Positions 1,839-55,996 are shown, counted from the stretch's first letter. The stretch: DNA of 64,000 nt from an uncultured Kaistella sp. (GCA_964532055.1 CAZHFE010000001.1:3576-67575), one strand, 5' to 3'. Notes: a model not told the origin generated them from the sequence alone. Numbers and translations are program-made.

Positions 1839-1851
1839 ATGTCCTCATTTT

Positions 1852-3033: not shown

Positions 3034-3144
3034 TGTGTAGATTTTTAATTAATATTCACGAATCAACATCTGTTCCAACGAATTGTTTTAATTTTATTAA
3101 AAACATTTTTTGAAAACAAACTAAAAAGGCAATGTTATGAAAAA

Positions 3145-4167: not shown

Positions 4168-4178
4168 AATTACGAAAT

Positions 4179-5177: not shown

Positions 5178-5243
5178 TTTTTTTTGTGTGTATTAGCAAA
5201 TGTAAACAGAATTTTGTTTATTTTTGGATTATAATTATTAGTT

Positions 5244-5531: not shown

Positions 5532-5535
5532 TTTG

Positions 5536-6027
5536 TTAATCAACATAAATTCCTGCCCAACTTCTTTTCAAAGGGAGCAGAAAATCTGAAAGAAAATTAA
5601 CGTAAGTAGATTTTGAAAAATCGAAAACCTCTATATCTTGTGAGATTTCACTGTTTTTCAGTCCGTTTCGGAAATCCTGAAGTTTCATCGTTTTCACTTC
5701 ACCGTTTTCTACAAAACTCGCTTTCATTCTGTCGAATAATCCCAATCCCAATTGGTTATCAATTTCTCTCATCACTCCGCCAAGAGAATCTATGGAACAA
5801 CCCGATGCGGCTTCTTTTTCTTCGTCCACACAAACCACGATAAACTGATTTTTTTCAATCTTAAAAGACGAAGAAAGTGGTTTTCCGTGTGCAGCCCAAG
5901 TTGCGAGAAAATCATATAATTTTTCGGTAATGACTTTGCTCTCTTTCGGTGTAAACGGTCGAGATGCGGGATAAATAATCACTCGGTAATCGTTGGTTTC
6001 TATGATTTCGGATTGTTCTATTTTCAT
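5536..6027 (-). CDS. Conserved Bacteroidota hypothetical protein
   Basis: RVIIYPASR, WAAHGKPL, ASGCSID, FDRM motifs. Start moved to ATG 6027 because the upstream extension is a repeat element. Confidence 0.8.
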   Translation of the reverse strand: MKIEQSEIIETNDYRVIIYPASRPFTPKESKVITEKLYDFLATWAAHGKPLSSSFKIEKNQFIVVCVDEEKEAASGCSIDSLGGVMREIDNQLGLGLFDRMKASFVENGEVKTMKLQDFRNGLKNSEISQDIEVFDFSKSTYVNFLSDFLLPLKRSWAGIYVD

Positions 6028-40115: not shown

Positions 40116-40188
40116 GCGAAAATAGCTCAGCTGGTAGAGCGCAACCTTGCCAAGGTTGAGGTCGCGGGTTCGAACCCCGTTTTTCGCT
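40116..40188 (+). tRNA. tRNA-Gly (GCC)
   Basis: GCGAAAA/TTTTCGC acceptor stem, TTGCCAA loop, GGGTTCGAACCC. Confidence 0.96.
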
Positions 40189-41831
40189 CATATTTCTACC
40201 TGCCTTGGTGGTGGAACTGGTAGACACGCAGGACTTAAAATCCTGTGTCCGCAAGGACGTACGGGTTCAAGTCCCGTCCGAGGTACATAGCGGGAGTTGG
40301 TTGAAAAATCATCTCCCGTTTCTTTTTTCAACCTCTGGAAATCTCGATTATACCTGCAAAGTAATGAGATTGCTTCATTAAAAGGAAGGGTTCGGAATTT
40401 ATTTTTTTCAAAAATTAATTTTTCTGTGAAGTACGAACCCAATAAAAGTACTTTCGTTTCTACAGTAGCATTTTTGTAAAAATCATCGAGATTTGAGATA
40501 ACCGTAAGTCCGAAAGATAGAAGTTTATTTAAATCATCATTGTAGTTACTATATTCGTTTTTTCTTAACTTCAAATCGACCAGCTCTGACTTTTTTATTT
40601 CCGACATTTTTAAATAGAGGCTGTCATCAATAATCCCATTTATATTTTTATTTACAAGTGCTATTTGCTCTTTTTCTAACTGGCATATTTTTTCCTCTAT
40701 ACTTTTTGATAGTCTAATGCTTTCTTGAAGAGTTTCTTGGTATTCATCAATTAGAATTTCTTCAAATAACTTTAGAATGCCTTTAGAGGGTTTTGCTTTA
40801 GAAAGAACTCTATATAATTCTTTGTGAATTATTTCAGGGGAATACTTCTCTCCACAGTTGTTTGAACATCTATATGAAGAATGAAATACCTTTTTCTGTT
40901 TTCCATTATTACTCTTACTTCCGTAGAGTGGGCTACCACAGCAAGCACATACCAAAAACCCACTTAAAGGAAAGTCAGGGTTTTTAGGTCGTTTCTTTTT
41001 AATCATCCTGTTTCTGCCTTTTTTGATGTCCTGCACCGTGTTAAATAATTTTTCCGGGATGATTGCTTCGTGCAGCCCTTTTTGCAAATTGTAAGGAGGT
41101 ATTTTATGCTTTTTAAGGTCAATATAACCTGCGTACAAAATATTACTCAGGATTATGCTTAATGACGATTCAGAAATATTTAGTCCTTCTGCCTTATATT
41201 TTTTTACCAACTCTGCCTGTGTATATAAACCAGTCGAGTAATCTTCAAATAACTGTCTTATTAGAGGTGCTTTTTCATTTGGTACTATGCCTTTTTTTAA
41301 AGAACCATCTTCATTAATTCTTCCCCACTTATAACCATTCGGGGGAGTTTTAATATATCTTCCCTTCTTCATTGCTCTTCTTTCCCCAAGCCTTGTCCGT
41401 TCGTTAATGATCGCCCTCTCATATTCAGCAAAAGTAAACTTCAAATGCATTATCATTCTACCTTGTGCAGAATCAATATCATTAATCCATTCATCAACGA
41501 AATTAACTTCAATACCTAATTTATTGATGTCTTCATAAGCCTCAACACCTGTCTTAACCCCTCTTGTAAATCTATCGGCTTTTTTAGTTAAAAAGAGGTT
41601 AATTTCACCTTTATTTTCTTTCAAAAATTTATGCGCTTTTTCAAATTGAGGTCTTTTAAAGTCCTTTCCTGAATAAACATCTACATAAGTATCTAAAAGA
41701 ATAATGTTATTGTTTATACAAAAATTTTTAATGCTTTCTTTTTGGCTTTCAAGTGAAGTACCATCTTCTTGGCTAACAGAACTAACACGTAAATATCCTA
41801 CCGCTGTTTTATATGTTTTTTTCTTCTCCAT
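40188..41831 (-). CDS. Large serine recombinase (integrase); C-terminus reads through attL antisense to tRNA-Leu
   Basis: GYLRVSS catalytic motif, SGKDFKRP, KADRFTR, AEYERAIINERT, recombinase domain, zinc ribbon CACC...YRCSNNC, coiled coil. Confidence 0.95.
   Translation of the reverse strand: MEKKKTYKTAVGYLRVSSVSQEDGTSLESQKESIKNFCINNNIILLDTYVDVYSGKDFKRPQFEKAHKFLKENKGEINLFLTKKADRFTRGVKTGVEAYEDINKLGIEVNFVDEWINDIDSAQGRMIMHLKFTFAEYERAIINERTRLGERRAMKKGRYIKTPPNGYKWGRINEDGSLKKGIVPNEKAPLIRQLFEDYSTGLYTQAELVKKYKAEGLNISESSLSIILSNILYAGYIDLKKHKIPPYNLQKGLHEAIIPEKLFNTVQDIKKGRNRMIKKKRPKNPDFPLSGFLVCACCGSPLYGSKSNNGKQKKVFHSSYRCSNNCGEKYSPEIIHKELYRVLSKAKPSKGILKLFEEILIDEYQETLQESIRLSKSIEEKICQLEKEQIALVNKNINGIIDDSLYLKMSEIKKSELVDLKLRKNEYSNYNDDLNKLLSFGLTVISNLDDFYKNATVETKVLLLGSYFTEKLIFEKNKFRTLPFNEAISLLCRYNRDFQRLKKETGDDFSTNSRYVPRTGLEPVRPCGHRILSPACLPVPPPRQVEI
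40202..40285 (+). tRNA. tRNA-Leu (TAA); integration target
   Basis: GCCTTGG/CCGAGGT acceptor stem, CTTAAAA loop, variable arm, GGGTTCAAGTCCC. Confidence 0.96.
40271..40300. other. attL site
   Basis: tRNA 3' end gtcccgtccgag-GT-acatagcgggag. Confidence 0.75.
40291..40328 (+). terminator. Element-supplied terminator after the tRNA cluster
   Basis: cgggag-t-tggtt-gaaa-aatca-t-ctcccg followed by tttctttttt. Confidence 0.65.
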
Positions 41832-41985
41832 CTTTTATTTTTGTTTTTACAGAATTGGCTTTAAACTCTTTGATAACTATCTTAGCCTGTCTTTGGAGTT
41901 CCCAAAGAATTTTTTCTATCTCATCATCAGAAAAATTTTCTCCTGCGTTTTGGAGGGTTTTTCGGGCTTTCTCCTTTGTAACCAT
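41809..41985 (-). CDS. 58-aa ORF immediately upstream of the recombinase (not in ORF track)
   Basis: MVTKEKARKTLQNAGENFSDDEIEKILWELQRQAKIVIKEFKANSVKTKIKDGEEKNI*. Starts 4 nt after the upstream stop and overlaps the LSR start by 23 nt. Confidence 0.65.
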   Translation of the reverse strand: MVTKEKARKTLQNAGENFSDDEIEKILWELQRQAKIVIKEFKANSVKTKIKDGEEKNI

Positions 41986-41988
41986 CAC

Positions 41989-42786
41989 TTATAGTTTTAT
42001 ACTTGTCTCTAATTCATCATTAATGGCAATATCAATCTTCTGAAAACTCCAGCTAATGATTGTCTCCATTACTTCTTCATTGAGAAGTAAACTTTGGGAA
42101 TTTTCAATAAACCTTATATCCCCTTCTTTCAGATGAAACTTGAGGTACTGATAATCGCCCGTTTTAAGAAAGTAAAGCAATAGCATTTTATTTTTATCCT
42201 CTAACGGGTTTTGTATTTTAAAATCTGTTGAAAGAGCATTATTAGGATATTCTAAAGCGATATAATCCTCCAGTTTGAAAATTGTGTGAACAGGAAACCT
42301 TCCTTTAGAAAACCATCTCATATAGGCTTCAAACGAGTATAATCTTGCGTGTCCCTCAATAGGAATATATAAGACTTGGGGCATTGAAAACAAAGTTTTA
42401 ATAACCTCCAACTTAAAAAGTGAAAAATCTTTTATAGATGATTCTAATAATGTCTTTCTCGCATCCTTTAAAATATTTATGGGAATCCCAAACTTACGAG
42501 CATCAAAAACTATATTGAGCCAAATATTCTCCAACCTATTAAATCTTCGTATTTTTCCTTTGTCTCCGTCCTGTAATTTAATGACAGCTTGAGCGAGCCA
42601 ACTATTAACAATTCTTGCAGGATGTTCTGGTTTGATTCCTGTTTTATTTTCCTGCAAACAGTAGTTTAATACATCGTTTCTCAAAAAATGAACGACCTCT
42701 AATGGCAAATCTCCATAAACATCCAATACTGCTTTTTCGCTAATACTTTTTTCCTGTTGTCTTGCTTTCTCAATATCAAATCCCAT
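41989..42786 (-). CDS. Protein with MerR-like HTH region
   Basis: ARIVNSWLAQAVIK...IRRFNRLENIWLNIVFDARKFGIPINILK resembles the MerR wHTH pattern; TATATTTG promoter at 42803-42810. Confidence 0.55.
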   Translation of the reverse strand: MGFDIEKARQQEKSISEKAVLDVYGDLPLEVVHFLRNDVLNYCLQENKTGIKPEHPARIVNSWLAQAVIKLQDGDKGKIRRFNRLENIWLNIVFDARKFGIPINILKDARKTLLESSIKDFSLFKLEVIKTLFSMPQVLYIPIEGHARLYSFEAYMRWFSKGRFPVHTIFKLEDYIALEYPNNALSTDFKIQNPLEDKNKMLLLYFLKTGDYQYLKFHLKEGDIRFIENSQSLLLNEEVMETIISWSFQKIDIAINDELETSIKL

Positions 42787-42883
42787 AATCGAAATATTTT
42801 TACAAATATATAAATTTTACAATTAAATGTAACAAAAATTTTATTTTATTTCTTTTCGATGTATTATGAATTGTTTTCTACAA

Positions 42884-42913
42884 AAAAGACTTTCTAATAA
42901 TAAGAAAGTCTTT
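42884..42913 (-). terminator. Terminator after qatD
   Basis: aaagacttt(t)ct-aataata-agaaagtcttt. Confidence 0.65.
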
Positions 42914-42948
42914 AAAATGAAATAGTACTTTTATTAAGTGTAAAGTTC

Positions 42949-43680
42949 TTATTTCAAACAACTAATTAATCTTAAGAAGTTAGATGAAATAATATTTTCT
43001 ACGTTGTAACTCGAGGCATTCCATTCTTGAGCCAAATAATCGATTACTGGGGATGTTTCTCCCGGATTTAAAGGTAAACCTTTCTCAACTATAAATGGAC
43101 CATCTGTTTCTGTTAAAATAAACTCTTTAGGTATTTTTGATATGATTTTCCTTCCAGAGACAGATTTTATCATTGCCGGATTAACAGAGAAAAAATAACC
43201 TGCTTCTCTAATGGCTTCAATTAAATCTAATCTTCCTGAATACCAATGAAAAATTGCATATTTTATATTATATTCTAACAATAGATCTAAAACTTCTTTC
43301 TCCGCTTTTCTGGAATGAATGCTCAATATTTTTTTCTGCCCTGAAATAATCTTAAGTATTTTAGAAAAAGTATCTAATTGAATATCTTTTGTAGAAATCC
43401 CTTCTTTAGAAAAGTCTAAACCAATTTCTCCTATATACGATGTTTTACCAACGTTCTTAATGAATAAATCAAACTCCTTTTTATGCGAATCGGCCATCAA
43501 AGGGTGCATTCCTAAAGCTAATCTTATTCTTTTTAATGATTGAAAATGAGCGTATCCCATTTCAAAATGGCTTGGCAAATTGGTCATTGCTAATACTGAT
43601 ATATTAGCTTTTATGCAATCCTGCAAAACTTTTCTTGGATTCTGATATAAATCTATATGGCAGTGTGTATCAATAATCAT
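42949..43680 (-). CDS. qatD: TatD-family nuclease, Qat defence subunit D
   Basis: DTHCH, LGMHP, IGEIGLD, SIHSR, FHWYSG, LTETDGP; ATGA overlap with qatC. Confidence 0.9.
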   Translation of the reverse strand: MIIDTHCHIDLYQNPRKVLQDCIKANISVLAMTNLPSHFEMGYAHFQSLKRIRLALGMHPLMADSHKKEFDLFIKNVGKTSYIGEIGLDFSKEGISTKDIQLDTFSKILKIISGQKKILSIHSRKAEKEVLDLLLEYNIKYAIFHWYSGRLDLIEAIREAGYFFSVNPAMIKSVSGRKIISKIPKEFILTETDGPFIVEKGLPLNPGETSPVIDYLAQEWNASSYNVENIISSNFLRLISCLK

Positions 43681-45044
43681 CTTATCCCTAACTCAGACTT
43701 TACAAATCTATTTCCTTTATCTCTAAATAATTGTAAAACCTCTTCTTTAGACCTTAATACCATATCCGCATACTCTTCAAGATCAGCAATCTCAATATTT
43801 CCATTCACTAATAAATCTCTTTTCATATTTTCCAAAGAAATATTTCTTTTTAAATAGCTGGTTAATGCAGGCAGATCTTTACTGTAATTTCGTGAAGTGG
43901 CATTAGTAATAAAATTGCCATAGTGGTCTTCATTATCTAATGTTGCTTTATTTAGAGCAGCCCTTCTATAAATGCAAGGCATACATATTCCACATTCTTG
44001 TACTCCAGTTCTTACTTCCCAATTTTGTTTCCTTCCTCTTTTACCACAAGAAACCGAATCTTGAAAAATACTTTGTATAAATGTTTGGTTTGTACATTCA
44101 ACAAACATTTCCCCCTTAGTTTTAAATGTATAAGGGTTATGTATTCTTGTAGATACTCCTAAATCGGCAAGTAATTCTTGAGTGTTTTTCAATACATAAG
44201 GATGCGTTGTTCTAGTACTTAAAGAACTCACTCTTGATGGAGTTAGTGGATAATTGATTGAGATTGTGCCGTTCTCAGGAATTATCAAATCATCAGTAGG
44301 GGACAAATAACAACCCAAACCAATGAAAAAGAAAGAACGACTACGGTAATTATTTTCGACATTTATTTTATTGCCATCACTATCTTTTCTTAACAATGCC
44401 AATTTTGATTGCACCCAATATATTTTGTCTTGATATTGGGCCATCAAATGCCTTAATAGCTTTCTTTGGTCTCCATTTGGACCTGGGGATTTTGAATCAA
44501 AATGAGATACCAAAAGTATTCTTTCATTATTTCCTAGCTTCTCCAATTCATCGATAACTCCAATTAAAGAATCCAAACCACCCGAAAATAAACTTACAGA
44601 TTTGATGGAGTCTCTGTCGTAAGTTGGAATTTTTCTTCTGTTTGTACGTGGTTGAAACAAATTAACTTCTTCTATTTCTCGGAAATAAATCTGCCAATTA
44701 TCACCTGTTAAGAAGTCTAAAACTTGTTTCAATTTTTCTTCTTTCCCACTCCAAACAGCTAAGTTATTCACTGGAAATTCCACTTCTATATCTCTTGCCC
44801 AACCATCATTTGAATAAATAGCCCGACTAAGCAGGTTATCTACACCATAAACTATTGCAGACACAAGAAAAAAATCAAATTTTACAGAAGTAAAATCAGT
44901 CGTAAAATCAAAAACCCTTTCATAACCTAAGAATGATAATGGAACTTTTCTATTCACTCCATTATCCATATAACAAAGTTGCAAATCTGAGAACTTGCCA
45001 TAATCTGCATCCTCAATAACTACGTTTACTCTCATATTATTCAA
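43677..45044 (-). CDS. qatC: QueC-like protein, Qat defence subunit C
   Basis: SLFSGGLDS PP-loop, RSRSFFF, IPENG, TRTTHP, SCGK...CGICMPCIYRR. Confidence 0.9.
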   Translation of the reverse strand: MNNMRVNVVIEDADYGKFSDLQLCYMDNGVNRKVPLSFLGYERVFDFTTDFTSVKFDFFLVSAIVYGVDNLLSRAIYSNDGWARDIEVEFPVNNLAVWSGKEEKLKQVLDFLTGDNWQIYFREIEEVNLFQPRTNRRKIPTYDRDSIKSVSLFSGGLDSLIGVIDELEKLGNNERILLVSHFDSKSPGPNGDQRKLLRHLMAQYQDKIYWVQSKLALLRKDSDGNKINVENNYRSRSFFFIGLGCYLSPTDDLIIPENGTISINYPLTPSRVSSLSTRTTHPYVLKNTQELLADLGVSTRIHNPYTFKTKGEMFVECTNQTFIQSIFQDSVSCGKRGRKQNWEVRTGVQECGICMPCIYRRAALNKATLDNEDHYGNFITNATSRNYSKDLPALTSYLKRNISLENMKRDLLVNGNIEIADLEEYADMVLRSKEEVLQLFRDKGNRFVKSELGIR

Positions 45045-45777
45045 ATACGGTTAATATATCTTGCTGAATATTTTTAACAACCCTATCGGCTTCGTCAGAA
45101 CTCCAATCAATGTTTTGTAGTGGATTTCTTTTGTGCATATCTCCAACTCTTTCAACTATAAAATTTTTTATTTGGTTGAAAAGGTTGTTACAATCACTTT
45201 CACTCTTATTTTTTATTAAATTTTCATAGAACCACTTTGATAAAAGCTCATTAATGTAATATCCAAAATATTTTACTATTACATCTTCCAATGTATTTGT
45301 GGTAAAAGTCTCCTGTAATAAAGTTTGTACTTCATCAATGGATTCAGCTTGCCCCATTAGTTCTTCTAATAATAATCTTGTGGCTTCTTTTGCCGCATTA
45401 TCATCAATTGAAGTTGCATTACCGGAACAATACTCAATCAAATGATTAATTACATCGCCAACCGTTTTATTATCAATATCGGTTAAACCAGTAGATTCAA
45501 GAGTTTCTCTAATATTATTACCCGAACTGATAAACTTTGAAAAGACTCCTCCGATTTTCTTTGCAGTTCTGATACTGCTTCTTCCTCCTGCTTTTGAACC
45601 GCCACGCCCTCCTGTTGATGCTCCGCCCAATGCTGAAACAAAATGCCCCATAATGTTCTGTAGCTTCTGAGCTGGAAGAACAGAAGAATCACAATTTGAG
45701 GTAAGCGAAGAACTAAGCGTACCCCAATTCGGAACCATTGAGTGTTTTACATCAGAAAATGATTTAGATGTTCCCAT
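45037..45777 (-). CDS. qatB: Qat defence subunit B
   Basis: MGTS N-terminus, Gly-rich GGASTGGRGGS segment, position between qatA and qatC. Confidence 0.8.
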   Translation of the reverse strand: MGTSKSFSDVKHSMVPNWGTLSSSLTSNCDSSVLPAQKLQNIMGHFVSALGGASTGGRGGSKAGGRSSIRTAKKIGGVFSKFISSGNNIRETLESTGLTDIDNKTVGDVINHLIEYCSGNATSIDDNAAKEATRLLLEELMGQAESIDEVQTLLQETFTTNTLEDVIVKYFGYYINELLSKWFYENLIKNKSESDCNNLFNQIKNFIVERVGDMHKRNPLQNIDWSSDEADRVVKNIQQDILTVFE

Positions 45778-45779
45778 TT

Positions 45780-47678
45780 CTATTTTTTTAGATTAAACGC
45801 TTTACTTGCTCTTGATTTTCCATCTTTGAAATAATCATTCAAAAACGTTCCAATTTCAGGTTCTGATTTAAAGTCTGCCAATCTCGTAGCAACCGCAGGT
45901 TCAATATCTGATACGCTGATTATTTTAAGAGTTTCCATATAGTGATAAACTGCATTTTCTATTTTATCTTCTGTCATTACATTGAAAATGTCATACAACC
46001 GCTTTTGCTGAGGATTCCTTTTTAAATTTGAAGATAAAAGATTGAAAAAAGCATCTTTTTCAATATCGCTAAAAGGTTGAAATTTTTCATATAGTAGAGA
46101 TTTTGTAACTGTTGCCGTCATATTATCGGGTAATAACTCATTAAACAATGCCCTTACTACTGGTGGAATCATACTCGTTGCAGTGATAGAATTTTCTAAT
46201 TTATCACGGGCAATCCAATAATAATCCCGTAAATCAACTCCTGATAACAATGGTTCTATTTGAAACCATTTTATTATTTTGGGTTTACTCCATTCTTTGA
46301 AATCAGTATCTTTTATTTCCAAAAGAACATCCTCAATGCCTTTATCCTTACATATAGATTCTATTTCTGTTATTTCTTTTGGCATTCCGTCTTGGGAAAT
46401 TTGCCACTCAAATAATTTTTTGAACAGCTTGGGTTCTGAATATTCAAGTATCATCATTTTTGCAAGAACAGCATCATTAAAACTTTGTAACGATGCAACT
46501 TCGGCAAGTCTTTTTCTAATTGTATAAGTATTTAGAAACCGTTTAATCTGTCGGGGATTTCCATACAAACTATTTGTAATCAATGGTACTAATGCCGGAA
46601 TCGTAATTACATTATCTTTAACTTTTCCAAATTCCTCTGCTTCTAAAATCTTTTCAAAATTTGATAATCCAAATGCAGAATATTTATTCGTTAACCTATA
46701 CTTCTGAAATTCAGCAAGTACGTTTTCAAATTTGGTATTATCAATCTCTTTTTTACAGATAAGCATTGATATATAAGTTTCGACTTCTGATTCCGACAAT
46801 CTCGGTAACGAATATGGAAGCTGAATTAATTTTTCTAAATAATCAATAACAATTCGGTTGTTATCTTCTTCGATTTCTTTATTATTTTTGTATTTATTTT
46901 CAATGGCATATTTCACTATTCGAGGGTCTGCTCCAATAATGAATGCTGTTTTGGGTACGTTTAGGAAAAGTTTAATTGCTTCAAGGTTCTCAATAATTCT
47001 TTCGGGGCTACATCTGTCTAAATCATCAATAATTACAACCAATCTTTTAAAGTTTGTGGCTTCTAAGAGTTCAGCAAAATCTTTTCTAAATTCTGCCACC
47101 GCATTAGTGGAATTTTTATCTTCCTCTTTACTTTCTTTTATAAAGGCTTTAAATGTTTCCTGACCTTCTTTGGAGTTAAGTTTTTCTATTATTTTTTCAG
47201 GATTATCTCCCCATTCGGTTAGCTTTTGAACGGCAAAAGGAAGTAAACTAATGCCTCCTGTAAAGTATGCAGAAACAGCGGGTAAGGCAACATTCTTCAT
47301 AACCATACCTGCTCCACGTATCCAATCAATAGATTTCCAAAGTTTCTTTGCTTTTTCTTTTATCGTATCCTTTATTTCGGCTGAAATCTTTTTATTGTCT
47401 TCCAATTCCTTAAGAATTGAATTTAGCAATGCGGCTTTAGCATCATCATATCCTTCAAAAGTCCATCCATTAAAGTATATGCAGAGAGAATCCTTATCAT
47501 CCTCCTTATCAAATTCTTCTTTTACTATTTGTAAGATACTGGATTTCCCACTTCCCCAATCGCCAAAAACGCCTATTGTAATCGGCAAAACAGACTCGTC
47601 ATTGATTATATTGATTAACAAATCTGCGTGTACTTTAAAACCTAAAAGGTCTTCGGAGGTTTCGTTATCTGCCCACAT
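45780..47678 (-). CDS. qatA: KAP-family P-loop NTPase, Qat defence subunit A
   Basis: MWADNET, IGVFGDWGSGKSS, FNGWTFEGYDDAK, IIDDLDRC, YLEKLIQ, GNPRQIKRFLN. Confidence 0.92.
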   Translation of the reverse strand: MWADNETSEDLLGFKVHADLLINIINDESVLPITIGVFGDWGSGKSSILQIVKEEFDKEDDKDSLCIYFNGWTFEGYDDAKAALLNSILKELEDNKKISAEIKDTIKEKAKKLWKSIDWIRGAGMVMKNVALPAVSAYFTGGISLLPFAVQKLTEWGDNPEKIIEKLNSKEGQETFKAFIKESKEEDKNSTNAVAEFRKDFAELLEATNFKRLVVIIDDLDRCSPERIIENLEAIKLFLNVPKTAFIIGADPRIVKYAIENKYKNNKEIEEDNNRIVIDYLEKLIQLPYSLPRLSESEVETYISMLICKKEIDNTKFENVLAEFQKYRLTNKYSAFGLSNFEKILEAEEFGKVKDNVITIPALVPLITNSLYGNPRQIKRFLNTYTIRKRLAEVASLQSFNDAVLAKMMILEYSEPKLFKKLFEWQISQDGMPKEITEIESICKDKGIEDVLLEIKDTDFKEWSKPKIIKWFQIEPLLSGVDLRDYYWIARDKLENSITATSMIPPVVRALFNELLPDNMTATVTKSLLYEKFQPFSDIEKDAFFNLLSSNLKRNPQQKRLYDIFNVMTEDKIENAVYHYMETLKIISVSDIEPAVATRLADFKSEPEIGTFLNDYFKDGKSRASKAFNLKK

Positions 47679-47759
47679 AAATTGTAATTGTTAATGTGTG
47701 AAAATTATTCAAAGTATTCTATGTTGTCAGCAAAAATATTTCATTACGATTAATAAATA

Positions 47760-47775
47760 TTACGGAAAACCGTAA
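47760..47775. repeat. TTACGG-N4-CCGTAA palindrome, copy 1
   Basis: ttacggaaaaccgtaa between the Sir2 remnant and qatA. Confidence 0.75.
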
Positions 47776-47800
47776 AAATGAATTTAGTATTAAAAAATAA

Positions 47801-48012
47801 TTTTTCATATTTATAGTTCTTATAAAATTCGGCAGAATTTATATTTTAGACAGATAAATATCTTTTTTCCTCTTCCAAATACAGTCATAAGCAGATTGAA
47901 TACCAGAACTAATAGACGCTCCAGCACCCAATAAAAAAGAATGCGGAACATCCAAATTCCATTTAAAAGACCTTAAAAATGCATCGTATTCAAGTAGTAT
48001 GTTTTCTGTCAT
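47801..48012 (-). pseudogene. Truncated, frameshifted Sir2-domain gene (resembles SPARSA Sir2-APAZ N-termini)
   Basis: MTENILLEYDAFLRSFKWNLDVPHSFLLGAGASISSGIQSAYDCIWKRKKDIYLSKI* (47839-48012); one extra A would continue it as SKNINSAEFYKNYK. Confidence 0.75.
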
Positions 48013-48043
48013 ATTAATTTACCTTTATATACAGACGGGTTAT

Positions 48044-48748
48044 TTATAAATATTTTAATAATTCTTCTGCCAACCTAAATACTGTAGTCGATGATTCTTC
48101 TTTCGCTGGATTTTTGTGGTCAAATTGTTCAAAGTTTCTTGTAGCTCTTGTAATAGCTAAATCAACTCTTTTCTTTTTTGTTTTCGTATCAATTCCGTCT
48201 AATAACTCAAAAAAATCCTCACTCACTTTTTTAGTCCCGTTTCCGTCATATGTTACGCCGAACGGTTTAAGTAATTCATTTATTTTGTCGTTGTAATCAC
48301 TCCTGTGCATTCCTCCTCCTTGATGGTCGTCAAAATGAAGAATTAACCAATACTCAAAAGATTGATTAGAATAAGCTACATTAAAATTTTGAGCTTCTGC
48401 TATTTGGATTGCACGATTAAAATCATTTTCAGTAAAGTCGTCTTTGTCAAATACACACCAAACTTGGTCATATTGCTTTTCGCCCGCTAATTGTTCTGCT
48501 CTATTGACCAACGATATTGTGTTATACCCTTCGCCAACTGATTTTACCGTTGCAGAAGAAAGTCTAAACTGATTGAAATAGGAAGGCTCTGTATTTTCAC
48601 CTTCACAAACAATCAATATCGAAGGTTTTTCAATCAATTCAGCATCTGGTCTTTCCAAATTTGGTTCAATCCGCCTTTTAGCTTTAAGTTGTTCCTTATG
48701 TTTTTGTTTAGCCGCTATTTGCTCAGCTCTTTTGTTCTTCATTTTCAT
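48044..48748 (-). CDS. RloB-family (AbiLii-like, TOPRIM-like) protein
   Basis: LIVCEGENTEPSYF, VWCVFDKD, AYSNQSFEYWLILHF, STTVFRL. Confidence 0.9.
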   Translation of the reverse strand: MKMKNKRAEQIAAKQKHKEQLKAKRRIEPNLERPDAELIEKPSILIVCEGENTEPSYFNQFRLSSATVKSVGEGYNTISLVNRAEQLAGEKQYDQVWCVFDKDDFTENDFNRAIQIAEAQNFNVAYSNQSFEYWLILHFDDHQGGGMHRSDYNDKINELLKPFGVTYDGNGTKKVSEDFFELLDGIDTKTKKKRVDLAITRATRNFEQFDHKNPAKEESSTTVFRLAEELLKYL

Positions 48749-50057
48749 ATTGCGGCATATTAAAATTTAGGTTATCAAAAAAGCCTAAATATGGAATAGC
48801 ACCATATTTACCTCTAATGTAATTATCTTCAAAAGGTTCATTTTTCTTAACTTCATCAGACTTAAAGTTTGCTAAAGAATATAGTTTAGCCTCACCGTAT
48901 TTATCTTTATTCGTAAACCAAATTTGGTCTCTTCTAAATAAGCCTGAACTTAATAAGTTAGTATCGTGAGTGTTGAAAATTAATTGAGCGTTTTTTGTAT
49001 TGAATTCTTTTGAGTTAAACAAAGAAACAATTTTACACACTAAATTGGGATGTAACTTTGAATCAAGTTCGTCAACAACTAAAGTGTCGCCGTTTTCAAT
49101 GACATCTAAAATAGGACCCGTTAAAGCAAAAAACTTTCTTGTCCCCGAAGATTCATCTTCATCAAGAGAAAAATTCACATTGCCCAATAATTGCTTATTT
49201 AAGTCATACTTTTTATGGGTTGTCAATATATCAGCAAAAAACTGAGTGTTTTCTTCTTTCATTTTCCTAATAATTTCATCCTTCATCTCTTTAGGCATTC
49301 CTGTAGGCAATTTATCAATATCCAATTTTTGAATCTTAATATCCTGAATCCCTAAGTCAGCAGCTTTTAATAATTCAAGAATTTTTGCTTTATGTGTTGG
49401 AATTTCGGTTTTGCCAACAGTAAAACCTTGATATCCGATTTCATCTAAACCTGAAAGGAATTTCAGTTTTTTAAACCAATCAACGACTGCAATAGCTATT
49501 TTTTCATTGAATTGTGCTGCAACTGAAATGAAAAGAGCATTATCTCTTACAAGCCCTCCTTTTATTACTGCTGAACCTCTTGTGAATTTTCTGCTATGAG
49601 TTTCAAATTGATTTCCATCTCTGTAAAACAATTCAATCTCCTTTGTTTTAGGTTTATGATATAGCCATTCTGAAACAATATTTTCTTTAGTCGCTTCAAA
49701 ACCATAACGAAATAATTCTCCATTAAAAAGAAAAATAATTTCAAATTCAGATGGCTCATTTTCGGTTTCTTTACTTAAACGAAATGGTTCAACTTCAATG
49801 CTTTCTCCTTTTTGAGTTTCTTTTGAACTATTAATCACAAAATATCTCATAAAAGCAATAGCATCTAAAAATTTACTTTTTCCACTTGCGTTTGCTCCAT
49901 AGATTACTGCACTTTTGAGTAATCTGTAATTAAATGTTTGGTCTTCAAAAACATTCTCTACTTCTCGTGTTTCTTTATCATAATTAGAAGCAATTAAACT
50001 CAAAGTTGCTTTATCCTTAAAGATTCTGAAATTTTTAACTGAAAATTGTAGAAGCAT
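48723..50057 (-). CDS. RloA/AbiLi-like ABC-type ATPase
   Basis: IYGANASGKS, ESSGTRKFF, LVVDELDSKLHP, QLIFNTHD, RRDQIWF, YIRGKYGAIP. Confidence 0.92.
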   Translation of the reverse strand: MLLQFSVKNFRIFKDKATLSLIASNYDKETREVENVFEDQTFNYRLLKSAVIYGANASGKSKFLDAIAFMRYFVINSSKETQKGESIEVEPFRLSKETENEPSEFEIIFLFNGELFRYGFEATKENIVSEWLYHKPKTKEIELFYRDGNQFETHSRKFTRGSAVIKGGLVRDNALFISVAAQFNEKIAIAVVDWFKKLKFLSGLDEIGYQGFTVGKTEIPTHKAKILELLKAADLGIQDIKIQKLDIDKLPTGMPKEMKDEIIRKMKEENTQFFADILTTHKKYDLNKQLLGNVNFSLDEDESSGTRKFFALTGPILDVIENGDTLVVDELDSKLHPNLVCKIVSLFNSKEFNTKNAQLIFNTHDTNLLSSGLFRRDQIWFTNKDKYGEAKLYSLANFKSDEVKKNEPFEDNYIRGKYGAIPYLGFFDNLNFNMPQYENEEQKS

Positions 50058-50361
50058 AATAATTTCGCTTTTGTTAAATTTTATTACAAAGATAATACTT
50101 ATTTATTTCGCATATACAAAATAAATGTAATTTTTAACAAATTTACGATTTAAAACGCTTTTATTTTACGAGTATTAACAAAATAATAATTTCCATAGAG
50201 GTGTTTTTATTATAAGATATTTTTAATACTTTATGATGGTTGATGTTTAATTTTGCAAAAATTCAGGTGTTTTTCAAGTGGAAACTCAAAGCCAAATTTA
50301 AAATCTCAACTTAACAAATATATCTCTTTAAAAGTTTTGCTACCTTTCTAATCATTCATAA

Positions 50362-50395
50362 AAAATGCTACTTATGTCTAAATAAGTAGCATTTT
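50362..50395 (-). terminator. Terminator after the OB-fold membrane gene
   Basis: aaaatgctactta-N8-taagtagcatttt. Confidence 0.75.
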
Positions 50396-50415
50396 ACTAT
50401 TATCAACTCAATTCA

Positions 50416-51672
50416 TCACTCCCACAACTCGCAATTTTTAACAACCACATCCGTCAGAGAACGTCCTGAGCAAGTTCCGATAATCTGAACCTTCTGACCT
50501 TTATTAAGTTGGGAAAGAACTTTATTATTTTTATCCGAGAAATAGCAGTTCACACTTTGCAGGTAGTCGATTTTCAGAGAAACATAAGGGTCATCCAATA
50601 CATCCTTTCCAATTGTTCCTACAACTCCTTTAATCAGTAGTCTTTTTCCTTTATATTGTCCATCTGCTGAAACTTCATTAGCTTCATAGGCATTGTAAAG
50701 TTCCGATGCTGATACTTCCATATCAACCTTTGGAAACAGCTTGCTGTTAGGGTCAACTTCTTTCAGCTTGGTTAAAAATCCGTCTTTGGTGGCAAGATAA
50801 GGATAGATATAACTTCCTTTGTCATTCCAAGAAGAAAGACCTTTATTTTTAGCCTCGTAAAGTGCTTCTAAATTTTGCTTATCCGGGTTCATTAAAGCAA
50901 AGAAAGGGGTTAAATCATAGTCGTATTTGATTTGCTGTGAGTTCATATTCGCATCATACGTCATTCCTTTTACTCCAGATGCATTGAATTTGTTTTTATA
51001 ACGGACAAAGACATCAATAATCTCTTCCGGCAATCCGCCATTTACAGTTGGCATAGCCAAAGCACCACACTTAACCACAAAATCCATTTTGTTTTCTCCG
51101 TCTTCGGAGGATGTTACCTGTTTTTCCAAATCTGCATTAATAGCATAATTCTTAGACGAAATATTAGTAATTCCATTGGTTATAGCGTTGAGAACCGGCA
51201 GATATTCCGAACTCACAACTTTTTCAGTCACCAGCTTAGTATAAACCGGATTTTCTTTTAATGCGGAAAGCAGTTTCTCTCTGTTGGCTTTCAACTCCGG
51301 AGAAAGAGAAGCAATATTTTTAGCCGATTCGTCAAGATAGCTTTGATAAGGGTTTTGATTGACAACCTCTTCGGTTTTTTCTTTTGTAATCGAAGTGGAA
51401 GCAGGAAATTTTGTTTTGTTGGCTGTTATTCCAATCAAAGCCAACAGCACAGCATAAGAAACATACCGGACAGCCCGACTGTTCCATTGCTTTAATTTTT
51501 GTTTTAAATTTTCCGAGACCGGAGGAAGGATAACCACTCCTAAAATTGCAGAAATTAATCCTGCGAGCACTTCTTTCTGTGCAATCATTCCGAGTGCGGC
51601 AATGATGAACAATGCACCGATAATAAACTTTACGATTCTCATAAGACTGATATTTTTAAAATTAAACTTCAA
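50416..51672 (-). CDS. Membrane-anchored protein with C-terminal tRNA_anti-like OB fold
   Basis: Three N-terminal TM helices; C-terminal VSASELYNAYEANEVSADGQYKGKRLLIKGVV...LNKGQKVQIIGTC. Confidence 0.8.
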   Translation of the reverse strand: MKFNFKNISLMRIVKFIIGALFIIAALGMIAQKEVLAGLISAILGVVILPPVSENLKQKLKQWNSRAVRYVSYAVLLALIGITANKTKFPASTSITKEKTEEVVNQNPYQSYLDESAKNIASLSPELKANREKLLSALKENPVYTKLVTEKVVSSEYLPVLNAITNGITNISSKNYAINADLEKQVTSSEDGENKMDFVVKCGALAMPTVNGGLPEEIIDVFVRYKNKFNASGVKGMTYDANMNSQQIKYDYDLTPFFALMNPDKQNLEALYEAKNKGLSSWNDKGSYIYPYLATKDGFLTKLKEVDPNSKLFPKVDMEVSASELYNAYEANEVSADGQYKGKRLLIKGVVGTIGKDVLDDPYVSLKIDYLQSVNCYFSDKNNKVLSQLNKGQKVQIIGTCSGRSLTDVVVKNCELWE

Positions 51673-51768
51673 TTTTATTCTCTTTCAGCCCCAGAAAGAT
51701 TCATAAAACCGGAAACCGACCTTTAATAAAATGAGTTTCCAATTTTAAAGATTGTTTATTGGTTTTCC

Positions 51769-51784
51769 TTACGGAAATCCGTAA
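51769..51784. repeat. TTACGG-N4-CCGTAA palindrome, copy 2
   Basis: ttacggaaatccgtaa, extended by flanking tattggtt/aaccaata. Confidence 0.75.
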
Positions 51785-51819
51785 AACCAATAAAAAAAGG
51801 CGTGAGGACTTAACCAAAC

Positions 51820-51931
51820 GCTTCAAAGGCATCGCCAAACGCCCTATAACAATATGGAAAGCCCCACACCAAGTGTGGTAGCGGTTTTCCATATTCTCTG
51901 TTATAATTTGAAATTGGCGATTTCTTGAAGC
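51820..51931 (-). ncRNA. Structured RNA candidate: five nested stems
   Basis: gcttcaa/ttgaagc, atcgccaa/ttggcgat, tataac/gttata, aatatggaaa/tttccatatt, ccacac/gtgtgg. Strand inferred from the flanking genes. Confidence 0.6.
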
Positions 51932-52220
51932 AAGAATATGATTACACTACTTTGTTTTATCTATATTAAATTTACTTTTCTTATAAGTTTTATTTTTTAA
52001 CTTCTGCTAATATAGAAATTTCCTTCCATAAATTAAATCGGTTGCTTTAAAATTATATTCCTTTAAAAATTTTCGCATCAGCGAAAATTCCTCTATTCAT
52101 GGTATTTTCAACGGGTTTGTTGAAATATTTTACATTCAAAATTCGGTTGTTTTTCCTGCGATATTTCCGTTCAAAATTCCTTTTGGTGTTATCCCTTTGC
52201 TTTTAAAATTTGAAGGAATT

Positions 52221-52898
52221 TTAAACCTCTATTTGCGCTTGAAAAAATCTATCATATAATATCAACACTTGAGATGAGGTAAATTCACAGCCTCTGCTGG
52301 TCTTGAAACCGCTTTTATTCAGCTCATCAGCAATCTTTCCGTAACTGTTTCCGGCATTTCGTAATGAAACAATGAGGGCAGTTGCCTTACGGTTGTTCTC
52401 ATTTTGAAGAGCCTTTAACCTCATCGCCTCGCTTCCCATTTGTCTGGCTTTGGCAGTTAGGTTATTTGGAGTTCCAAGTTTTACGCCTTTCGCTTTGAGT
52501 TCCTGAAGTGCAGCAATGGTTCTTTTGCTGATGAGTTCCCGCTCTTCTTGTGCAAGAACTGCCATTATTCCGATTGTAATCGAATTGGCTTCCGGCATAT
52601 CACAGCATTTGAAATCTATATTGCTATCCTTCAATAAAAAGATAAACCCAGCATTTCTGCTGAGTCTATCAAGTTTAGCGATGAGCAAGGTTGCACCTTC
52701 ATTCTTACTTTTCTCTATGGCTTTCAGGAGCTGAGATCTGTTATCATTCTTGCCACTCTCAATTTCCTCGAATTCGTCTATCAGAATATCATCATCTTTG
52801 AGATAATTTCTTACCATTGATTTCTGGGCTTCCAATCCTAAGCCGGAATTTCCTTGTCTCTGAGTTGACACTCTGTAATAGGCTATGTATTTTTTCAT
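52221..52898 (-). CDS. Small serine recombinase (resolvase/invertase family)
   Basis: YIAYYRVSTQRQ, ESGKNDNR, AKLDRLSRN, AQEERELISKRT, GVKLG, C-terminal HTH. Confidence 0.93.
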   Translation of the reverse strand: MKKYIAYYRVSTQRQGNSGLGLEAQKSMVRNYLKDDDILIDEFEEIESGKNDNRSQLLKAIEKSKNEGATLLIAKLDRLSRNAGFIFLLKDSNIDFKCCDMPEANSITIGIMAVLAQEERELISKRTIAALQELKAKGVKLGTPNNLTAKARQMGSEAMRLKALQNENNRKATALIVSLRNAGNSYGKIADELNKSGFKTSRGCEFTSSQVLILYDRFFQAQIEV

Positions 52899-53041
52899 TT
52901 TTAGTAGTTGGGTTGGTTTGTAATGGTGCTTGAACGCTCGTTTATGAAATTCAACGGCAGTGATTTCCTATGCAAATATTTAATTTTCAGGGTCTGATTC
53001 TCTTAAGCATGCCTCATTTGCCTCGTTATATGCACAAATTG

Positions 53042-53785
53042 TCACGAAAATTCAATGTGTTTTTTGTTTATTAAATCCACCTCTTCATTTAGCAAGTCGC
53101 TTGGAACTGTCCAGTAGGAAAGGCTTTTGTAAGTCCAGACCCTGTAAATTATATCCTCATATTCAACTAAATTCCCAAAGTACCTTATATGAGAAACTAT
53201 CTTCAAAAAAGTGGAATTATTGCCGAATTTCTCACGGATTGAATAGAAATGAGGATTGTTTTGCATCGTTTTAGCAAACGTCCATTCCATACGTTCTAAA
53301 GTTTCCCCTGCGAACTGGTCAGTCAGATTGAAATGACCTCTGAGTTTGTAGATGTCTTCACTCCAGTATTTGCGTTGGATGTTTTGGTCAATACCTGTTT
53401 CATCTTCTACAGGGATTTTGTTGGCTCTTAAAAAGTCTGCAAAGATGTGACGGTAGCAAAACTCGTTGCCTTCTCCATATCCGAGCAGGACAACCTTAGT
53501 GGTATTCTCTTCTTTGCAGAACTGTCTGAGGTCAGTCAGTAGTTTTTCTACTCCCTTTCTTTCCACCTTTTTCCGGTAAAGTAGATTACAGGCTAAAAAA
53601 TCTCCTGCTCTCTGATTATCATACATTCTGAATATACTGAACCCTACCAGCTTTCTGACCTTCTCCGAGTTTCTGAAACTTCCATAGACTTTCCCTACAA
53701 CGCTTACCAGTGTATAGCCTTCATAGGTTTTTGTGTTTAAACTCTCGAAACTTTCAGTAACTATCTGTAAATCTGCATTTTTCAT
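53042..53785 (-). CDS. DUF488-like domain fused to an uncharacterised WTFAKTM..PH.Y domain
   Basis: VVLLGYGEGNEFCYRHIFADFL resembles the DUF488 LLCxE..FCHRH motif; C-terminal WTFAKTMQNNPHFYSIR...SYWT. Confidence 0.55.
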   Translation of the reverse strand: MKNADLQIVTESFESLNTKTYEGYTLVSVVGKVYGSFRNSEKVRKLVGFSIFRMYDNQRAGDFLACNLLYRKKVERKGVEKLLTDLRQFCKEENTTKVVLLGYGEGNEFCYRHIFADFLRANKIPVEDETGIDQNIQRKYWSEDIYKLRGHFNLTDQFAGETLERMEWTFAKTMQNNPHFYSIREKFGNNSTFLKIVSHIRYFGNLVEYEDIIYRVWTYKSLSYWTVPSDLLNEEVDLINKKHIEFS

Positions 53786-53840
53786 TACTTAAAGATACAA
53801 AAATTTTCGCATACGCAAAAATAAATCACTGATATACTGT

Positions 53841-54035
53841 AAGTTACAATCAGGATGTCAAGTAACTTTATAAAAACTGCCTAACACTACTGCTGGTGGT
53901 TTGAATGTTTCTGACTCTTCCCATACTTCCTAACCCTATCTACCTTTCTCCTCTCTGCTATATAATTAATTTACTCTGTACTGTACAGAGTTCACAGAGT
54001 AAGGTGTAGGGGATATTTTCTTTTCCCCTATATAC
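53841..54035. other. Inverted-repeat cluster, candidate origin (oriV/oriT)
   Basis: aagttac/gtaactt (53841-53868), actctgtac-t-gtacagagt (53973-53991), tagggga/tccccta (54007-54030). Confidence 0.35.
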
Positions 54036-54061
54036 CCCATTACTACTGTACACATTTTTTC

Positions 54062-54814
54062 CTAATCAATTTTTTTAAATTTCCGCTTCAAATGAACATT
54101 GATTTTGATGAGGTCTGAGCCTTTGATTAAAATTCCTCTCGCTGATTTTATGCAATACTGTTTATTGAAACTGATGTGCTTCATAAATTCTGCACTCACT
54201 TTGTTTCCCCTATCATCTTCTAAATAAAAATGGTTTTTCTTAATCGAAATAAAGTTGTTTTTTAAAGCCTCTTTTTTCAAGTTCTCTGCTGTGGTAACAG
54301 AAACGCCCAAACACTTGGCAAAATACCTCACAGGAAGGTCGTAAAAGTTTTTAGGATAAGCATAGGTATTCATACTGGGTATTCCATTAATTACACCCGA
54401 CACCTTATTTTTCTTATCCGTAAATTTTTTTGAGTTCCTGTAAAATCCTATAAGTGCAGCAGCACAAAGTCCACGAAAATCTTTAAAATCATTTCTATCA
54501 AATTTTAGAGCAGTTTGTGAACTTAATCTGTATTGCCGTTTTAATTGAACATAACTTACTACCCTCAACGATTGTTTTTTGGAGTTAAAAGAAAGCCATC
54601 TTTTTCTCAGCATCCAATCCAGAGAACTCTTAAAGGTTTTTACATTAATCCCTATTTCTTTTGCCTATATTTTATGACTGTCGGCTTTCACAGACAAATG
54701 ACCGCTGGATATGCACTTTAGAAAAATGTATATTTTAAGATGATTGAGTTTTCGTCTGGTAATAGCAAATTGTATTAACCCAATAGGAATTGTTGTGTAA
54801 GCCCCCTTCATCAT
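54062..54814 (-). pseudogene. Rep-like/HTH protein (250 codons) interrupted by an in-frame TAG at 54665-54667
   Basis: Frame is open from ATG 54814 (MMKGAYTTIPIGLIQFA...) to 54062 except for TAG at codon 50. HTH-like segments AKEIGINVKTFKSSLDW and YFAKCLGVSVTTAENLK. Confidence 0.65.
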
Positions 54815-54942
54815 AACCTTGCGAAATTTTGAGGGGTTTGTGCTAATGGGTATAAGCCTGCCTCTTCCAAGATGGGCTTCAGGTCATACAATCTCTTTAA
54901 ACCTTCATAAAATTGGTTCGTAATGAGTTTCGCTACGGGTAC
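54811..54942 (-). other. Orphan 3' exon-like segment: alternative LSR C-terminus used in the excised form
   Basis: In frame with the LSR across the core: VP-VAKLITNQFYEGLKRLYDLKPILEEAGLYPLAQTPQNFARL*; the stop overlaps the next ATG. Confidence 0.7.
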
Positions 54943-54955
54943 TTAAAACACTGAT
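54925..54955. other. attR site
   Basis: gagtttcgctacgg-GT-acttaaaacactg. Confidence 0.75.
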
Positions 54956-54978
54956 GATTTGATAATTGTCAGTGTTTT
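54945..54978. terminator. Host hairpin (original tRNA-Leu/pyrD convergent terminator)
   Basis: aaaacactga...tcagtgtttt starting 3 nt after the GGTAC core. Confidence 0.7.
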
Positions 54979-54988
54979 TGTTTAACAG

Positions 54989-55996
54989 TTACCCTATATT
55001 TAATATTTCCTCATTAATTTTCTTGATTAAACTAGACCCCTCATAAATAAATCCGGTATACAACTGTACCAAACTTGCTCCTGCATTGAGTTTTTCTATG
55101 GCGTCTTTTGCAGAATGAATTCCGCCGACTCCGATAATCGGGAATGCTTTGTTGCTTTTTTCTGAAAGAAAACTAATAACTTCCGTAGAACGTTCTGTTA
55201 AAGGTTTTCCGGAAAGTCCGCCTGTTTCTTTTTTGTTTTCGGAAACTAAATTTTCTCTCGACAAAGTTGTGTTTGTTGCAATAACACCTGCAATTTTGGT
55301 TTCTTTCACAATGTCGATAATATCCAGCAGTTGTTCGTCGGATAAATCCGGTGCGATTTTCAGAAGAATCGGTTTCGGGTTTTGCTTTTCAGAATTTAGT
55401 TTTTGCAGTTCACATAAAAGTTTCGTTAAAGGTTCTTTATCCTGCAATTCCCGAAGATTCGGCGTGTTTGGCGAAGACACATTAACTACAAAATAATCCA
55501 CATAATCAAACAGTTTTTCAAAACAGATTTTGTAATCATCTGCTGCATTTTCATTCGGCGTGATTTTATTTTTCCCGATGTTTCCGCCAATCAGAATATT
55601 TTTATTTTTGTTTAATCTTTCAACTGCCGCATCAACTCCGTCATTATTAAATCCCATTCTGTTGATGATTCCCGAATCTTCAATCAGCCGAAACAATCTT
55701 TTTTTATCGTTTCCTGGTTGTGCTTTCGGCGTTAAAGTCCCGATTTCGACAAACCCGAATCCTAAATCTGACAGTTCTTTGTAGAGTTTCGCATCTTTAT
55801 CAAAACCTGCCGCTAAACCAACCGGATTTTTGAATTTTAAACCGAAAACTTCACGCTCTAATCGTTTGTCTTCAATCGGTCTCGGAAAAAATAATTTTGC
55901 TAAAAACCCGAAATTCTTTAAGAAAGAAAAAGTAAAATGATGAACTTTTTCGGGGTCGAATTTGAAAAGAATAGGTCGGATTATGTTTTTGTACAT
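54989..55996 (-). CDS. pyrD: Quinone-dependent dihydroorotate dehydrogenase
   Basis: [44 protein letters not shown]. Confidence 0.97.

Follow-up and report, generated by a model that had tools for sequence, protein, structure and literature searches.

How a large serine recombinase could place an island at the very end of a tRNA gene, with almost no sequence shared between the two ends of the insertion, is the question raised by a locus in the 64,000-nt stretch presented above (from an uncultured Kaistella sp.), which at its full length is called the window here. The first-pass annotation of the window had proposed a serine-integrase island of 14.7 kb in which only the 5-bp core GGTAC is duplicated and from which attP and attB can be rebuilt by joining the inner and the outer halves of the two ends. 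We compared the window with related loci, which carry labels beginning with L. The island proper very probably comprises positions 40287-54942 (14,656 bp) and represents one integrative element at the 3′ end of tRNA-Leu(UAA). The comparisons also support an attP that lies within the 3′ end of the integrase gene itself, such that integration would split that gene. The features at the two ends on which this reading depends are the following.

40188 to 41831, minus strand: open reading frame (ORF) of the large serine recombinase (LSR) in its integrated form, 547 aa (Pfam; translations; 88 homologues).
40202 to 40286, plus strand: tRNA-Leu(UAA), the integration target (ARAGORN; Rfam tRNA, 56 bits).
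40264 to 40281, plus strand: B arm of attB and attL, consisting of the T-loop GGTTCAAGTCC and the acceptor 3′ strand (read from the sequence).
40282 to 40286, plus strand: attL core GGTAC, the sole sequence common with attR, with the crossover somewhere inside it (homology with L083, L085 and L086 stops here).
40287 to 40330, plus strand: P′ arm, with a hairpin at 40289-40320 (GAAA loop) and then a T-run on the tRNA-sense strand (dG, the folding free energy, -17.6; z -5.6).
41809 to 41988, minus strand: conserved 59-aa ORF overlapping the integrase start (tblastn matches directly upstream of the integrase in L082-L087 and L090).
41989 to 42786, minus strand: conserved protein of 265 aa in the integrase-end module (15 related loci have it upstream of the integrase).
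54811 to 54942, minus strand: C-terminal "exon" of the integrase, 43 codons plus stop, read VPVAKLITNQFYEGLKRLYDLKPILEEAGLYPLAQTPQNFARL up to the stop, which would be joined to the integrase ORF only in the excised circle.
54913 to 54929, plus strand: P-arm outer motif TTGGTTCGTAATGAGTT, invariant in six contexts (17 consecutive invariant alignment columns).
54938 to 54942, plus strand: attR core GGTAC, the right island boundary (homology with L147, L150, L151, L156 and L158 starts here).
54943 to 54985, plus strand: B′ arm, with a native hairpin at 54945-54978 and a T-run (dG -15.5, z -6.5).
54989 to 55996: pyrD, the flanking gene (closest relatives in Chryseobacterium, Epilithonimonas and Kaistella).

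The two copies of GGTAC lie at 40282-40286 and 54938-54942, and identity ends there, with not one base more on either side, as had been claimed. GGTAC occurs 25 times in the window compared to 28 expected. Given that this repeat and the CGCTA/TAGCG symmetry noted around it are at chance level when taken alone, the boundaries were tested by comparing related loci. On the right, homology with five further contexts (L147-149, L150, L151-154, L156 and L158) begins exactly at GTACCC, which corresponds to window positions 54942-54937 on the minus strand. Outside GTACCC, every context in the alignments of right-end relatives has its own A-run, hairpin and T-run, and inside it six variable bases are followed by the 17 invariant bases at 54913-54929. 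On the left, L083, L085 and L086 remain homologous as far as GTAC at the tRNA. The E. pallida element, whose integrase is 87% identical, and the elements of L085 and L086 (80%) are homologous to this end of the island only in the 265-aa gene, the small ORF and the integrase, and their homology stops at ...TATGTACC. Beyond that stop, these relatives have 13-17 nt of a tRNA-Leu 3′ end and then a tyrosine-integrase island, indicating that the same tRNA was used in tandem. In L156, the far-end module and the integrase-end module (265-aa and 57-aa genes) are found on one 12.5-kb contig, and the two modules are thus the two ends of one element. Since both end modules lose homology at GTAC, the alignments support boundaries that are correct to within the 4-5-bp shared core, and the 14.7-kb island lies where it had been placed. 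The GC content drops to 0.29-0.34 across 41-51 kb, and all island genes are on the minus strand. Judging from the closest relatives of the flanking pyrD, the host probably belongs to the Weeksellaceae.

The junction obtained by joining the inner halves reads ...TTTCGCTACGGGTACATAGCGGGA..., in agreement with the strings quoted in the first-pass annotation, and it restores a conserved reading frame. Across this junction the integrase ORF grows from 515 element-encoded codons to 558 aa. In the integrated form, codons 1-515 of the 547-aa integrase are element DNA, and the last 31 residues and the stop are tRNA antisense, which the ORF enters through attL. The stop codon of the circular form, TGA, overlaps the ATG of the next gene (ATGA). 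Five independent copies of the tail, 132 nt from GTA to TGA, each have one terminal stop in the integrase frame and two to four stops in the other frames. Among these five sequences, synonymous and nonsynonymous codon differences number 95/91 in the integrase frame compared to 30/172 and 11/185 in the other frames, and the variable columns are distributed 16/8/26 over the first, second and third codon positions. The copies share no conserved start codon, and their upstream flanks vary with the context. Given that the coding signature occurs only in the integrase frame and that a start codon is missing, the tail appears translatable only as the end of the circular-form integrase. Two more distant relatives in the attP configuration, L084 and L082, have a continuous ORF across GTAC, with CGAAC 18 nt after GTAC as in the window. 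The gene downstream in L084 was considered as a counterpart of the window's far-end gene and was rejected, as the two are not homologous.

These reading-frame comparisons support the placement of attP within the 3′ end of the integrase gene and a gene that would be split upon integration. We considered that the swap of tails may serve as a directionality or expression switch, with the tail needed for integration, for example, or blocking excision. We propose, tentatively and with some doubt, that the integrase has two isoforms determined by the state of the element, one of 558 aa from the circle and one with a tRNA-antisense tail, and that the family reads T-loop DNA as its attB motif and mimics this motif in attP. 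In the L082 contig (7652-12053, from a Polaribacter metagenome-assembled genome), an integrase with an intact attP-type 3′ end is found in a chromosomal context, beside two DDE_Tnp_1 insertion sequences and the ilv operon. Possibilities for this unrecombined attP include a tandem copy, capture mediated by an insertion sequence, or a chimeric contig.

At the tRNA end, the mature 3′ end of tRNA-Leu(UAA) is A40285, with T72-A73-C74 at 40284-40286, and the first copy of GGTAC therefore takes in the end of the acceptor stem, the discriminator and the base after it. The tRNA-Leu(UAA) copies of other organisms likewise end in ...GAGTAC. The outer halves, whose strings had also been quoted correctly, place the tRNA 2 nt from the hairpin AAAACACTGA...TCAGTGTTTT (54945-54978) when joined. 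The layout of this reconstruction recurs at tRNA-Leu(UAA) genes that other organisms of the same metagenome carry in an apparently unoccupied state, with ...GAGTAC followed by an AAAA-hairpin. The tRNA, TAC and A-run hairpin of these unoccupied sites suggest that the reconstructed attB has the native layout and that the element replaces a displaced terminator. A hairpin and T-run equivalent to those of the P′ arm, with differing stem sequences, occur in 25 of 26 family members, and the T-run corresponds to conserved Lys-Lys codons of the integrase. We read the P′ hairpin as a putative replacement terminator for the tRNA that lies antisense within the 3′ end of the integrase gene. In an empty site, the B′ hairpin would end the tRNA transcript; on the opposite strand, the same hairpin comes after pyrD. 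The host flanks at attR in all relatives contain analogous hairpins of different sequence.

A G1-U72 wobble tops the acceptor stem of this tRNA-Leu and of other Leu tRNAs beside family members, and it is also found in tRNA-Leu copies of other organisms in the same metagenome that have no LSR-type hairpin beside them. The idea that T72 was supplied by the element was rejected, given that same-metagenome tRNA-Leu genes without an adjoining LSR-type hairpin also have T72. Contigs of other organisms (runs X1-X4; window 40190-40340) share the 3′ half of tRNA-Leu(UAA) and diverge after GGTAC. One of them continues into an L091-type integrase hairpin and one into the P′ sequence TGAACGGGAG, and a third, three to four times more abundant, matches through GGTACATAGC and then has a different hairpin (CCGATGCGAAGCATCGG). 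Several elements of the family seem to use this tRNA-Leu(UAA) within one community. Tyrosine-integrase islands stand in tandem with serine-integrase elements at the same tRNA-Leu in L083 (11548-13032), L085 (7040-8244) and L151 (4015-9728), either between the tRNA and the serine element or beyond its far end, and the island in L151-154 carries a small terminase and HTH_17. The tRNA-Leu gene is a hotspot common to the serine and tyrosine integrase classes.

The identity of the recombinase as a serine integrase was upheld by Pfam matches to Resolvase (PF00239, 1.2e-28, residues 10-159), Recombinase (PF07508, 2.7e-8) and Zn_ribbon_recom (PF13408, 2.9e-7), with the scores for PF07508 and PF13408 above the family cutoffs. 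R15, S17 and Q21 of the catalytic motif region (YLRVSS) are invariant across 27 family members, and the zinc-ribbon cysteines C295, C298 and C322 are conserved. Residues 350-411 gave an unspecific helical-region match only, and similarity to solved structures is limited to the catalytic domain. Phage and plasmid relatives are less than 31% identical, and no close relative was found in the plasmid, phage and IMG/VR collections. The best full-length homologues (48, all from Flavobacteriia) end in G[LIFVM][EKQ]P, the antisense translation of the T-arm, in 37 cases, and in 25 of 42 scanned metagenome loci a tRNA gene lies directly downstream of the integrase gene in convergent orientation. The tRNAs targeted in the family are those for Leu (CAA, UAA, GAG and CAG), Asn, Met, Arg and Lys. 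These comparisons support membership of the integrase in a Flavobacteriia family of LSRs that appears to target tRNA genes. According to the Islander paper, targeting of tRNA genes was not known for serine integrases (PMC4383910). No description of a tRNA-targeting serine integrase family was found in the literature searched, and a large survey of LSRs does not contain the word tRNA (PMC10083194).

The att sites suggest how such a family might tell attP from attB. The distance from the start of GGTTC to GGTAC is 18 nt in the tRNA (40264 compared to 40282) and 23 nt in the P arm (54915 compared to 54938). The P arm therefore holds a T-loop-like GGTTCG that is 5 bp further from the core than the T-loop of the tRNA itself, and the same spacing is seen in the attP-form relatives L084 and L082. 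In attP of the LI integrase, the motif bound by the zinc-ribbon domain (ZD) likewise lies 5 bp more to the outside than it does in attB (PMC3783163). The GGTTCG shift would fit this zinc-ribbon rule by which LSRs distinguish the two sites, and a T-loop-like motif could explain why the relatives use many different tRNAs. A TTCGA "ZD motif" in the P′ arms was dropped, as GNRA-type hairpin loops explain it better.

The exact point of strand exchange is a separate matter. The first-pass annotation had described CGCTA/TAGCG as symmetric about a central GT. These arms are present in the sequence, but the symmetry is at chance level: an arm match of 7/12 like this one is reached at about 650 positions per strand, and the symmetry lies among the six variable P-arm bases and is not seen in the attP forms of L084 and L082. 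The crossover dinucleotide may lie anywhere in GGTAC, as GT, AC or GG. We give considerable weight, somewhat short of favoring it, to an exchange at AC (40285-86, tRNA A73-C74) or GG (40282-83) instead of GT (40283-84/54939-40), with the boundaries right as given. AC is the sole junction dinucleotide common to the members that use Leu, Met, Arg, Lys and Asn tRNAs, and it supplies the first two bases of a near-invariant Val codon on the integrase strand, although its conservation possibly reflects just the need to restore the tRNA discriminator. A center at GT gives the best dyad score in the window, which is the same 7/12 match, and it sets GGTTC at half-site positions 21-25 in the P arm and 16-20 in the B arm, near the modelled ZD contact ranges of LI. 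Given that GG, GT and AC all lie within the shared GGTAC, the products would be identical in each case.

Further from the core, the right end of the island consists of a conserved module with the following features.

52065 to 52091, no strand assigned: conserved, perfect inverted repeat AAAATTTTCGC-ATCA-GCGAAAATT (alignment with L083, L147, L150 and L156).
52221 to 52898, minus strand: small serine recombinase of the resolvase/invertase type (Pfam Resolvase, 1.4e-25; same position in L147-L156).
53042 to 53785, minus strand: 247-aa protein (245-247-aa genes at the same position in L147-L156).
54062 to 54814, minus strand: first far-end gene, with a TAG at 54665-54667 that interrupts it (homologues P0090-P0101 of about 250 aa, 74-83% identity).

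In relatives, this module comprises a gene of about 250 aa, a 245-247-aa gene, a 140-145-aa helix-turn-helix (HTH) gene and the small resolvase. It stands beside urocanase in L147-149, beside a tyrosine-integrase element in L151-154, and in further contexts in L150, L156 and L158. The HTH gene is present in L147, L150, L151 and L156 and is missing from the window copy and from L155. The inverted repeat lies in a conserved noncoding stretch of about 200 nt, just downstream of the small resolvase gene, where the conserved module gives way to variable cargo; suggestions for its role (an operator, a res site or an oriT) are guesses. The 59-aa, 265-aa, 247-aa and 250-aa proteins matched no family above cutoff in Pfam, PHROG and NCBIfam profile searches, and the 59-aa ORF would be a candidate directionality factor or regulator.

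We considered whether the right 2.7 kb (52221-54942, with the resolvase and two family-less genes) could be a separate tandem element, in which case the LSR island would end further left. From about 51 kb the GC content is back to a host-like 0.36-0.37, a serine recombinase is encoded within the module itself, and in L155 the module is found behind a tyrosine integrase without the tail region. Against this, the two end modules occupy the two ends of the single L156 contig, and in L089 the small resolvase adjoins the integrase module, directly upstream of the 265-aa gene and the integrase. The outer 132 nt of the module are coding only when read as a continuation of the integrase ORF across GGTAC, and there is no alternative junction motif further left. 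We regard a separate tandem element as very improbable and retain the single element with two conserved ends. L155 itself (644-5750) has the module, with 249-aa and 245-aa genes and the resolvase, directly after a tyrosine integrase and an HTH_17 gene, and its integrase-tail region and GTAC end are missing, an apparent exchange of modules between serine- and tyrosine-integrase kinds of island.

Between the conserved ends, the island carries antiphage cargo.

42949 to 47678, minus strand: QatD-QatC-QatB-QatA antiphage system (PADLOC: QatA 1.4e-113, QatB 9e-9, QatC 2e-92, QatD 1.6e-61).
48044 to 50057, minus strand: abortive-infection pair AbiLii (RloB) and AbiLi (AAA_21 ATPase) (PADLOC: AbiLi 1.7e-102, AbiLii 1.6e-30; Pfam).
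50416 to 51672, minus strand: membrane protein with a tRNA_anti-like OB domain, Sie-like (Pfam 4.7e-20; PHROG Sie-like 7.6e-13).

The Qat system is complete, with all four adjacent genes matched in order (KAP ATPase, qatB, QueC-like and TatD) and with Pfam matches to KAP_NTPase and TatD_DNase in the region. Homologues of the Sie-like protein are found in the L082, L085 and L086 islands. Each relative has a cargo of its own between the conserved ends (L083 1917-9843, L147 13284-20747, L155 6300-13826 and L156 3714-9925), and the genes found there include AbiTii, AbiH, AAA_15/AAA_21, HSDR_N, Dnd-like proteins (DndB, DndE and PAPS reductase), DUF4352 and Toxin-JAB1. The family appears to be a general carrier of defense genes, and the island itself is of an ordinary kind, a defense island carried by an integrase. 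That no gene for transfer or for a virion is visible had been stated before, and our searches agree: no relaxase, coupling protein or type IV secretion system family was found in the tested ORFs of at least 50 aa (Pfam, NCBIfam and PHROG), and the island has no PHROG structural match for capsid, terminase, portal or tail and no relative in the phage and IMG/VR collections. Given that three conserved proteins belong to no family, a novel mobilization protein may be among them. No Phage_integrase (tyrosine) domain occurs in any island ORF.

Several observations weigh against an intact and active element as outlined above. Across the family, attP is weakly dyad-symmetric, with no consistent center in L084 or L082, and a strict terminator scan calls neither the P′ nor the B′ hairpin. 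The closest relative, the E. pallida island, has no recognizable P arm; the P-arm motif was sought there within 10 kb and was not found. An empty site for this copy was not found when pyrD relatives were searched in 185,579 species genomes; the 80 pyrD loci are about 75-80% identical in DNA, with no tRNA within 10 kb of pyrD and no shared left-flank genes, and an exact-protein look-up of pyrD returned only the contig of the window. The Logan run index, queried with both flanks and the integrase end, places the organism in four runs only, all from one study, and the contigs of these runs follow a single path, with no excision joint or circle junction at attL/attR, no loose ends at attR, and an island depth equal to that of the flanks. 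In addition, the 140-aa HTH gene of the far end is missing, and the first far-end gene has an in-frame nonsense codon (TAG at 54665-54667, codon 50) where all homologues have Trp (TGG), with no read variant at this position in the four runs.

The nonsense codon and the missing HTH gene suggest that this copy may be decaying, and we considered that the element could be correctly delimited and yet be an immobile remnant, a reading also favored by the single contig path and the even depth. Conversely, no damage is seen in the integrase ORF, in its invariant residues, in the P-arm motif, in the core or in the tail ORF. At a depth of about 10x, contigs are unable to reveal rare excision, and L155 likewise lacks the HTH gene. 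On balance, a decaying remnant seems to us an unlikely, if reasonable, description of this copy, and we continue with an integrative element that is delimited by the two cores.

We propose that the LSR inserts the element at the very 3′ end of tRNA-Leu(UAA) by recombination within a shared GTAC (GGTAC here; tRNA positions 70-74). In this mechanism, attB would have the T-arm and acceptor of the tRNA as one half and the native terminator hairpin as the other, and attP would lie inside the 3′ end of the integrase gene. The excised circle would encode the 558-aa integrase, with its last 42-43 residues contributed by the far end of the island, and the integrated element would encode the 547-aa integrase that ends in tRNA-antisense codons. 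The tRNA would stay intact because the element supplies the same A73-C74, and a new hairpin and T-run would be brought in directly after it. Two conserved end modules, namely the 265-aa gene, the gene of about 57 aa and the integrase at one end and the genes of about 250 aa and 247 aa, the small resolvase and mostly the 140-aa HTH gene at the other, would frame variable antiphage cargo, here QatABCD, AbiL and the Sie-like protein.

The phage large serine integrases (Listeria A118/LI, Bxb1, phiC31 and TP901-1) have the same order of Resolvase, Recombinase and zinc-ribbon domains, and their short att sites, with a tiny shared core and no long direct repeat, resemble those predicted here. Unlike in these phage systems, the target here is a tRNA 3′ end, attP lies in the integrase ORF, the P′ arm resembles a terminator, and the element is a nonphage defense island. 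Tyrosine-integrase islands (Islander-type islands, Bacteroides NBU1 at tRNA-Leu and the Riemerella 10K island) use the same tRNA 3′ end and the same hotspots and keep a functional tRNA. However, they leave direct repeats of tens of bp compared to the 4-5 bp shared here, and the far end of the Islander type is a displaced tRNA fragment, whereas this island has the T-loop-like GGTTCG and no tRNA fragment. The Riemerella 10K island, with a tyrosine integrase and a 53-bp direct repeat (PMC6764341), was rejected as a serine-integrase parallel on account of that integrase. The best NCBIfam matches of the integrase are XisF (2.1e-35) and SCCmec CcrB (8.8e-25), with scores so far below the cutoffs (122 compared to 375 and 87 compared to 900 bits) that it is a member of neither family; XisF and CcrA/CcrB act on protein-coding or rlmH-linked sites and not on tRNA genes. 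Archaeal integrases of the SSV1 type (fuselloviruses) are tyrosine recombinases with attP in the integrase gene, and their integration into a tRNA gene partitions the ORF. Those integrases are split into large N- and C-terminal parts, whereas here a serine recombinase would swap its last 42-43 residues for a tRNA-antisense tail. In the integration-dependent immunity of mycobacteriophages, which involves a tyrosine integrase, attP lies in the repressor gene and integration alters the C terminus of the protein. The att site is in coding sequence in both systems, but the gene that is split is the repressor there and the integrase here. The use of tRNA genes by this family, the self-split integrase gene and a putative terminator within coding sequence appear to be undescribed in the literature searched.

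In summary, the published view that tRNA genes are targets of tyrosine integrases alone (PMC4383910) is amended by our comparison. Serine integrases are valued for genome engineering given their short sites and independence of host factors, and a family directed to tRNA 3′ ends would offer an attB in almost any bacterium, with attP, attB, attL and attR mapped here as predicted from the DNA. Tools that rely on a long direct repeat or on a displaced piece of tRNA miss such islands, and part of the defense-island mobilome of Flavobacteriia is thus probably unannotated. At this locus, a stretch of about 60 bp combines a recombination site, protein-coding sequence and a putative transcription signal. 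If the proposed isoforms and the reading of T-loop DNA are correct, control of the element would come partly from the position of its att site and not only from a separate directionality factor, and the family would represent a retargetable, tRNA-specific class of serine integrase.

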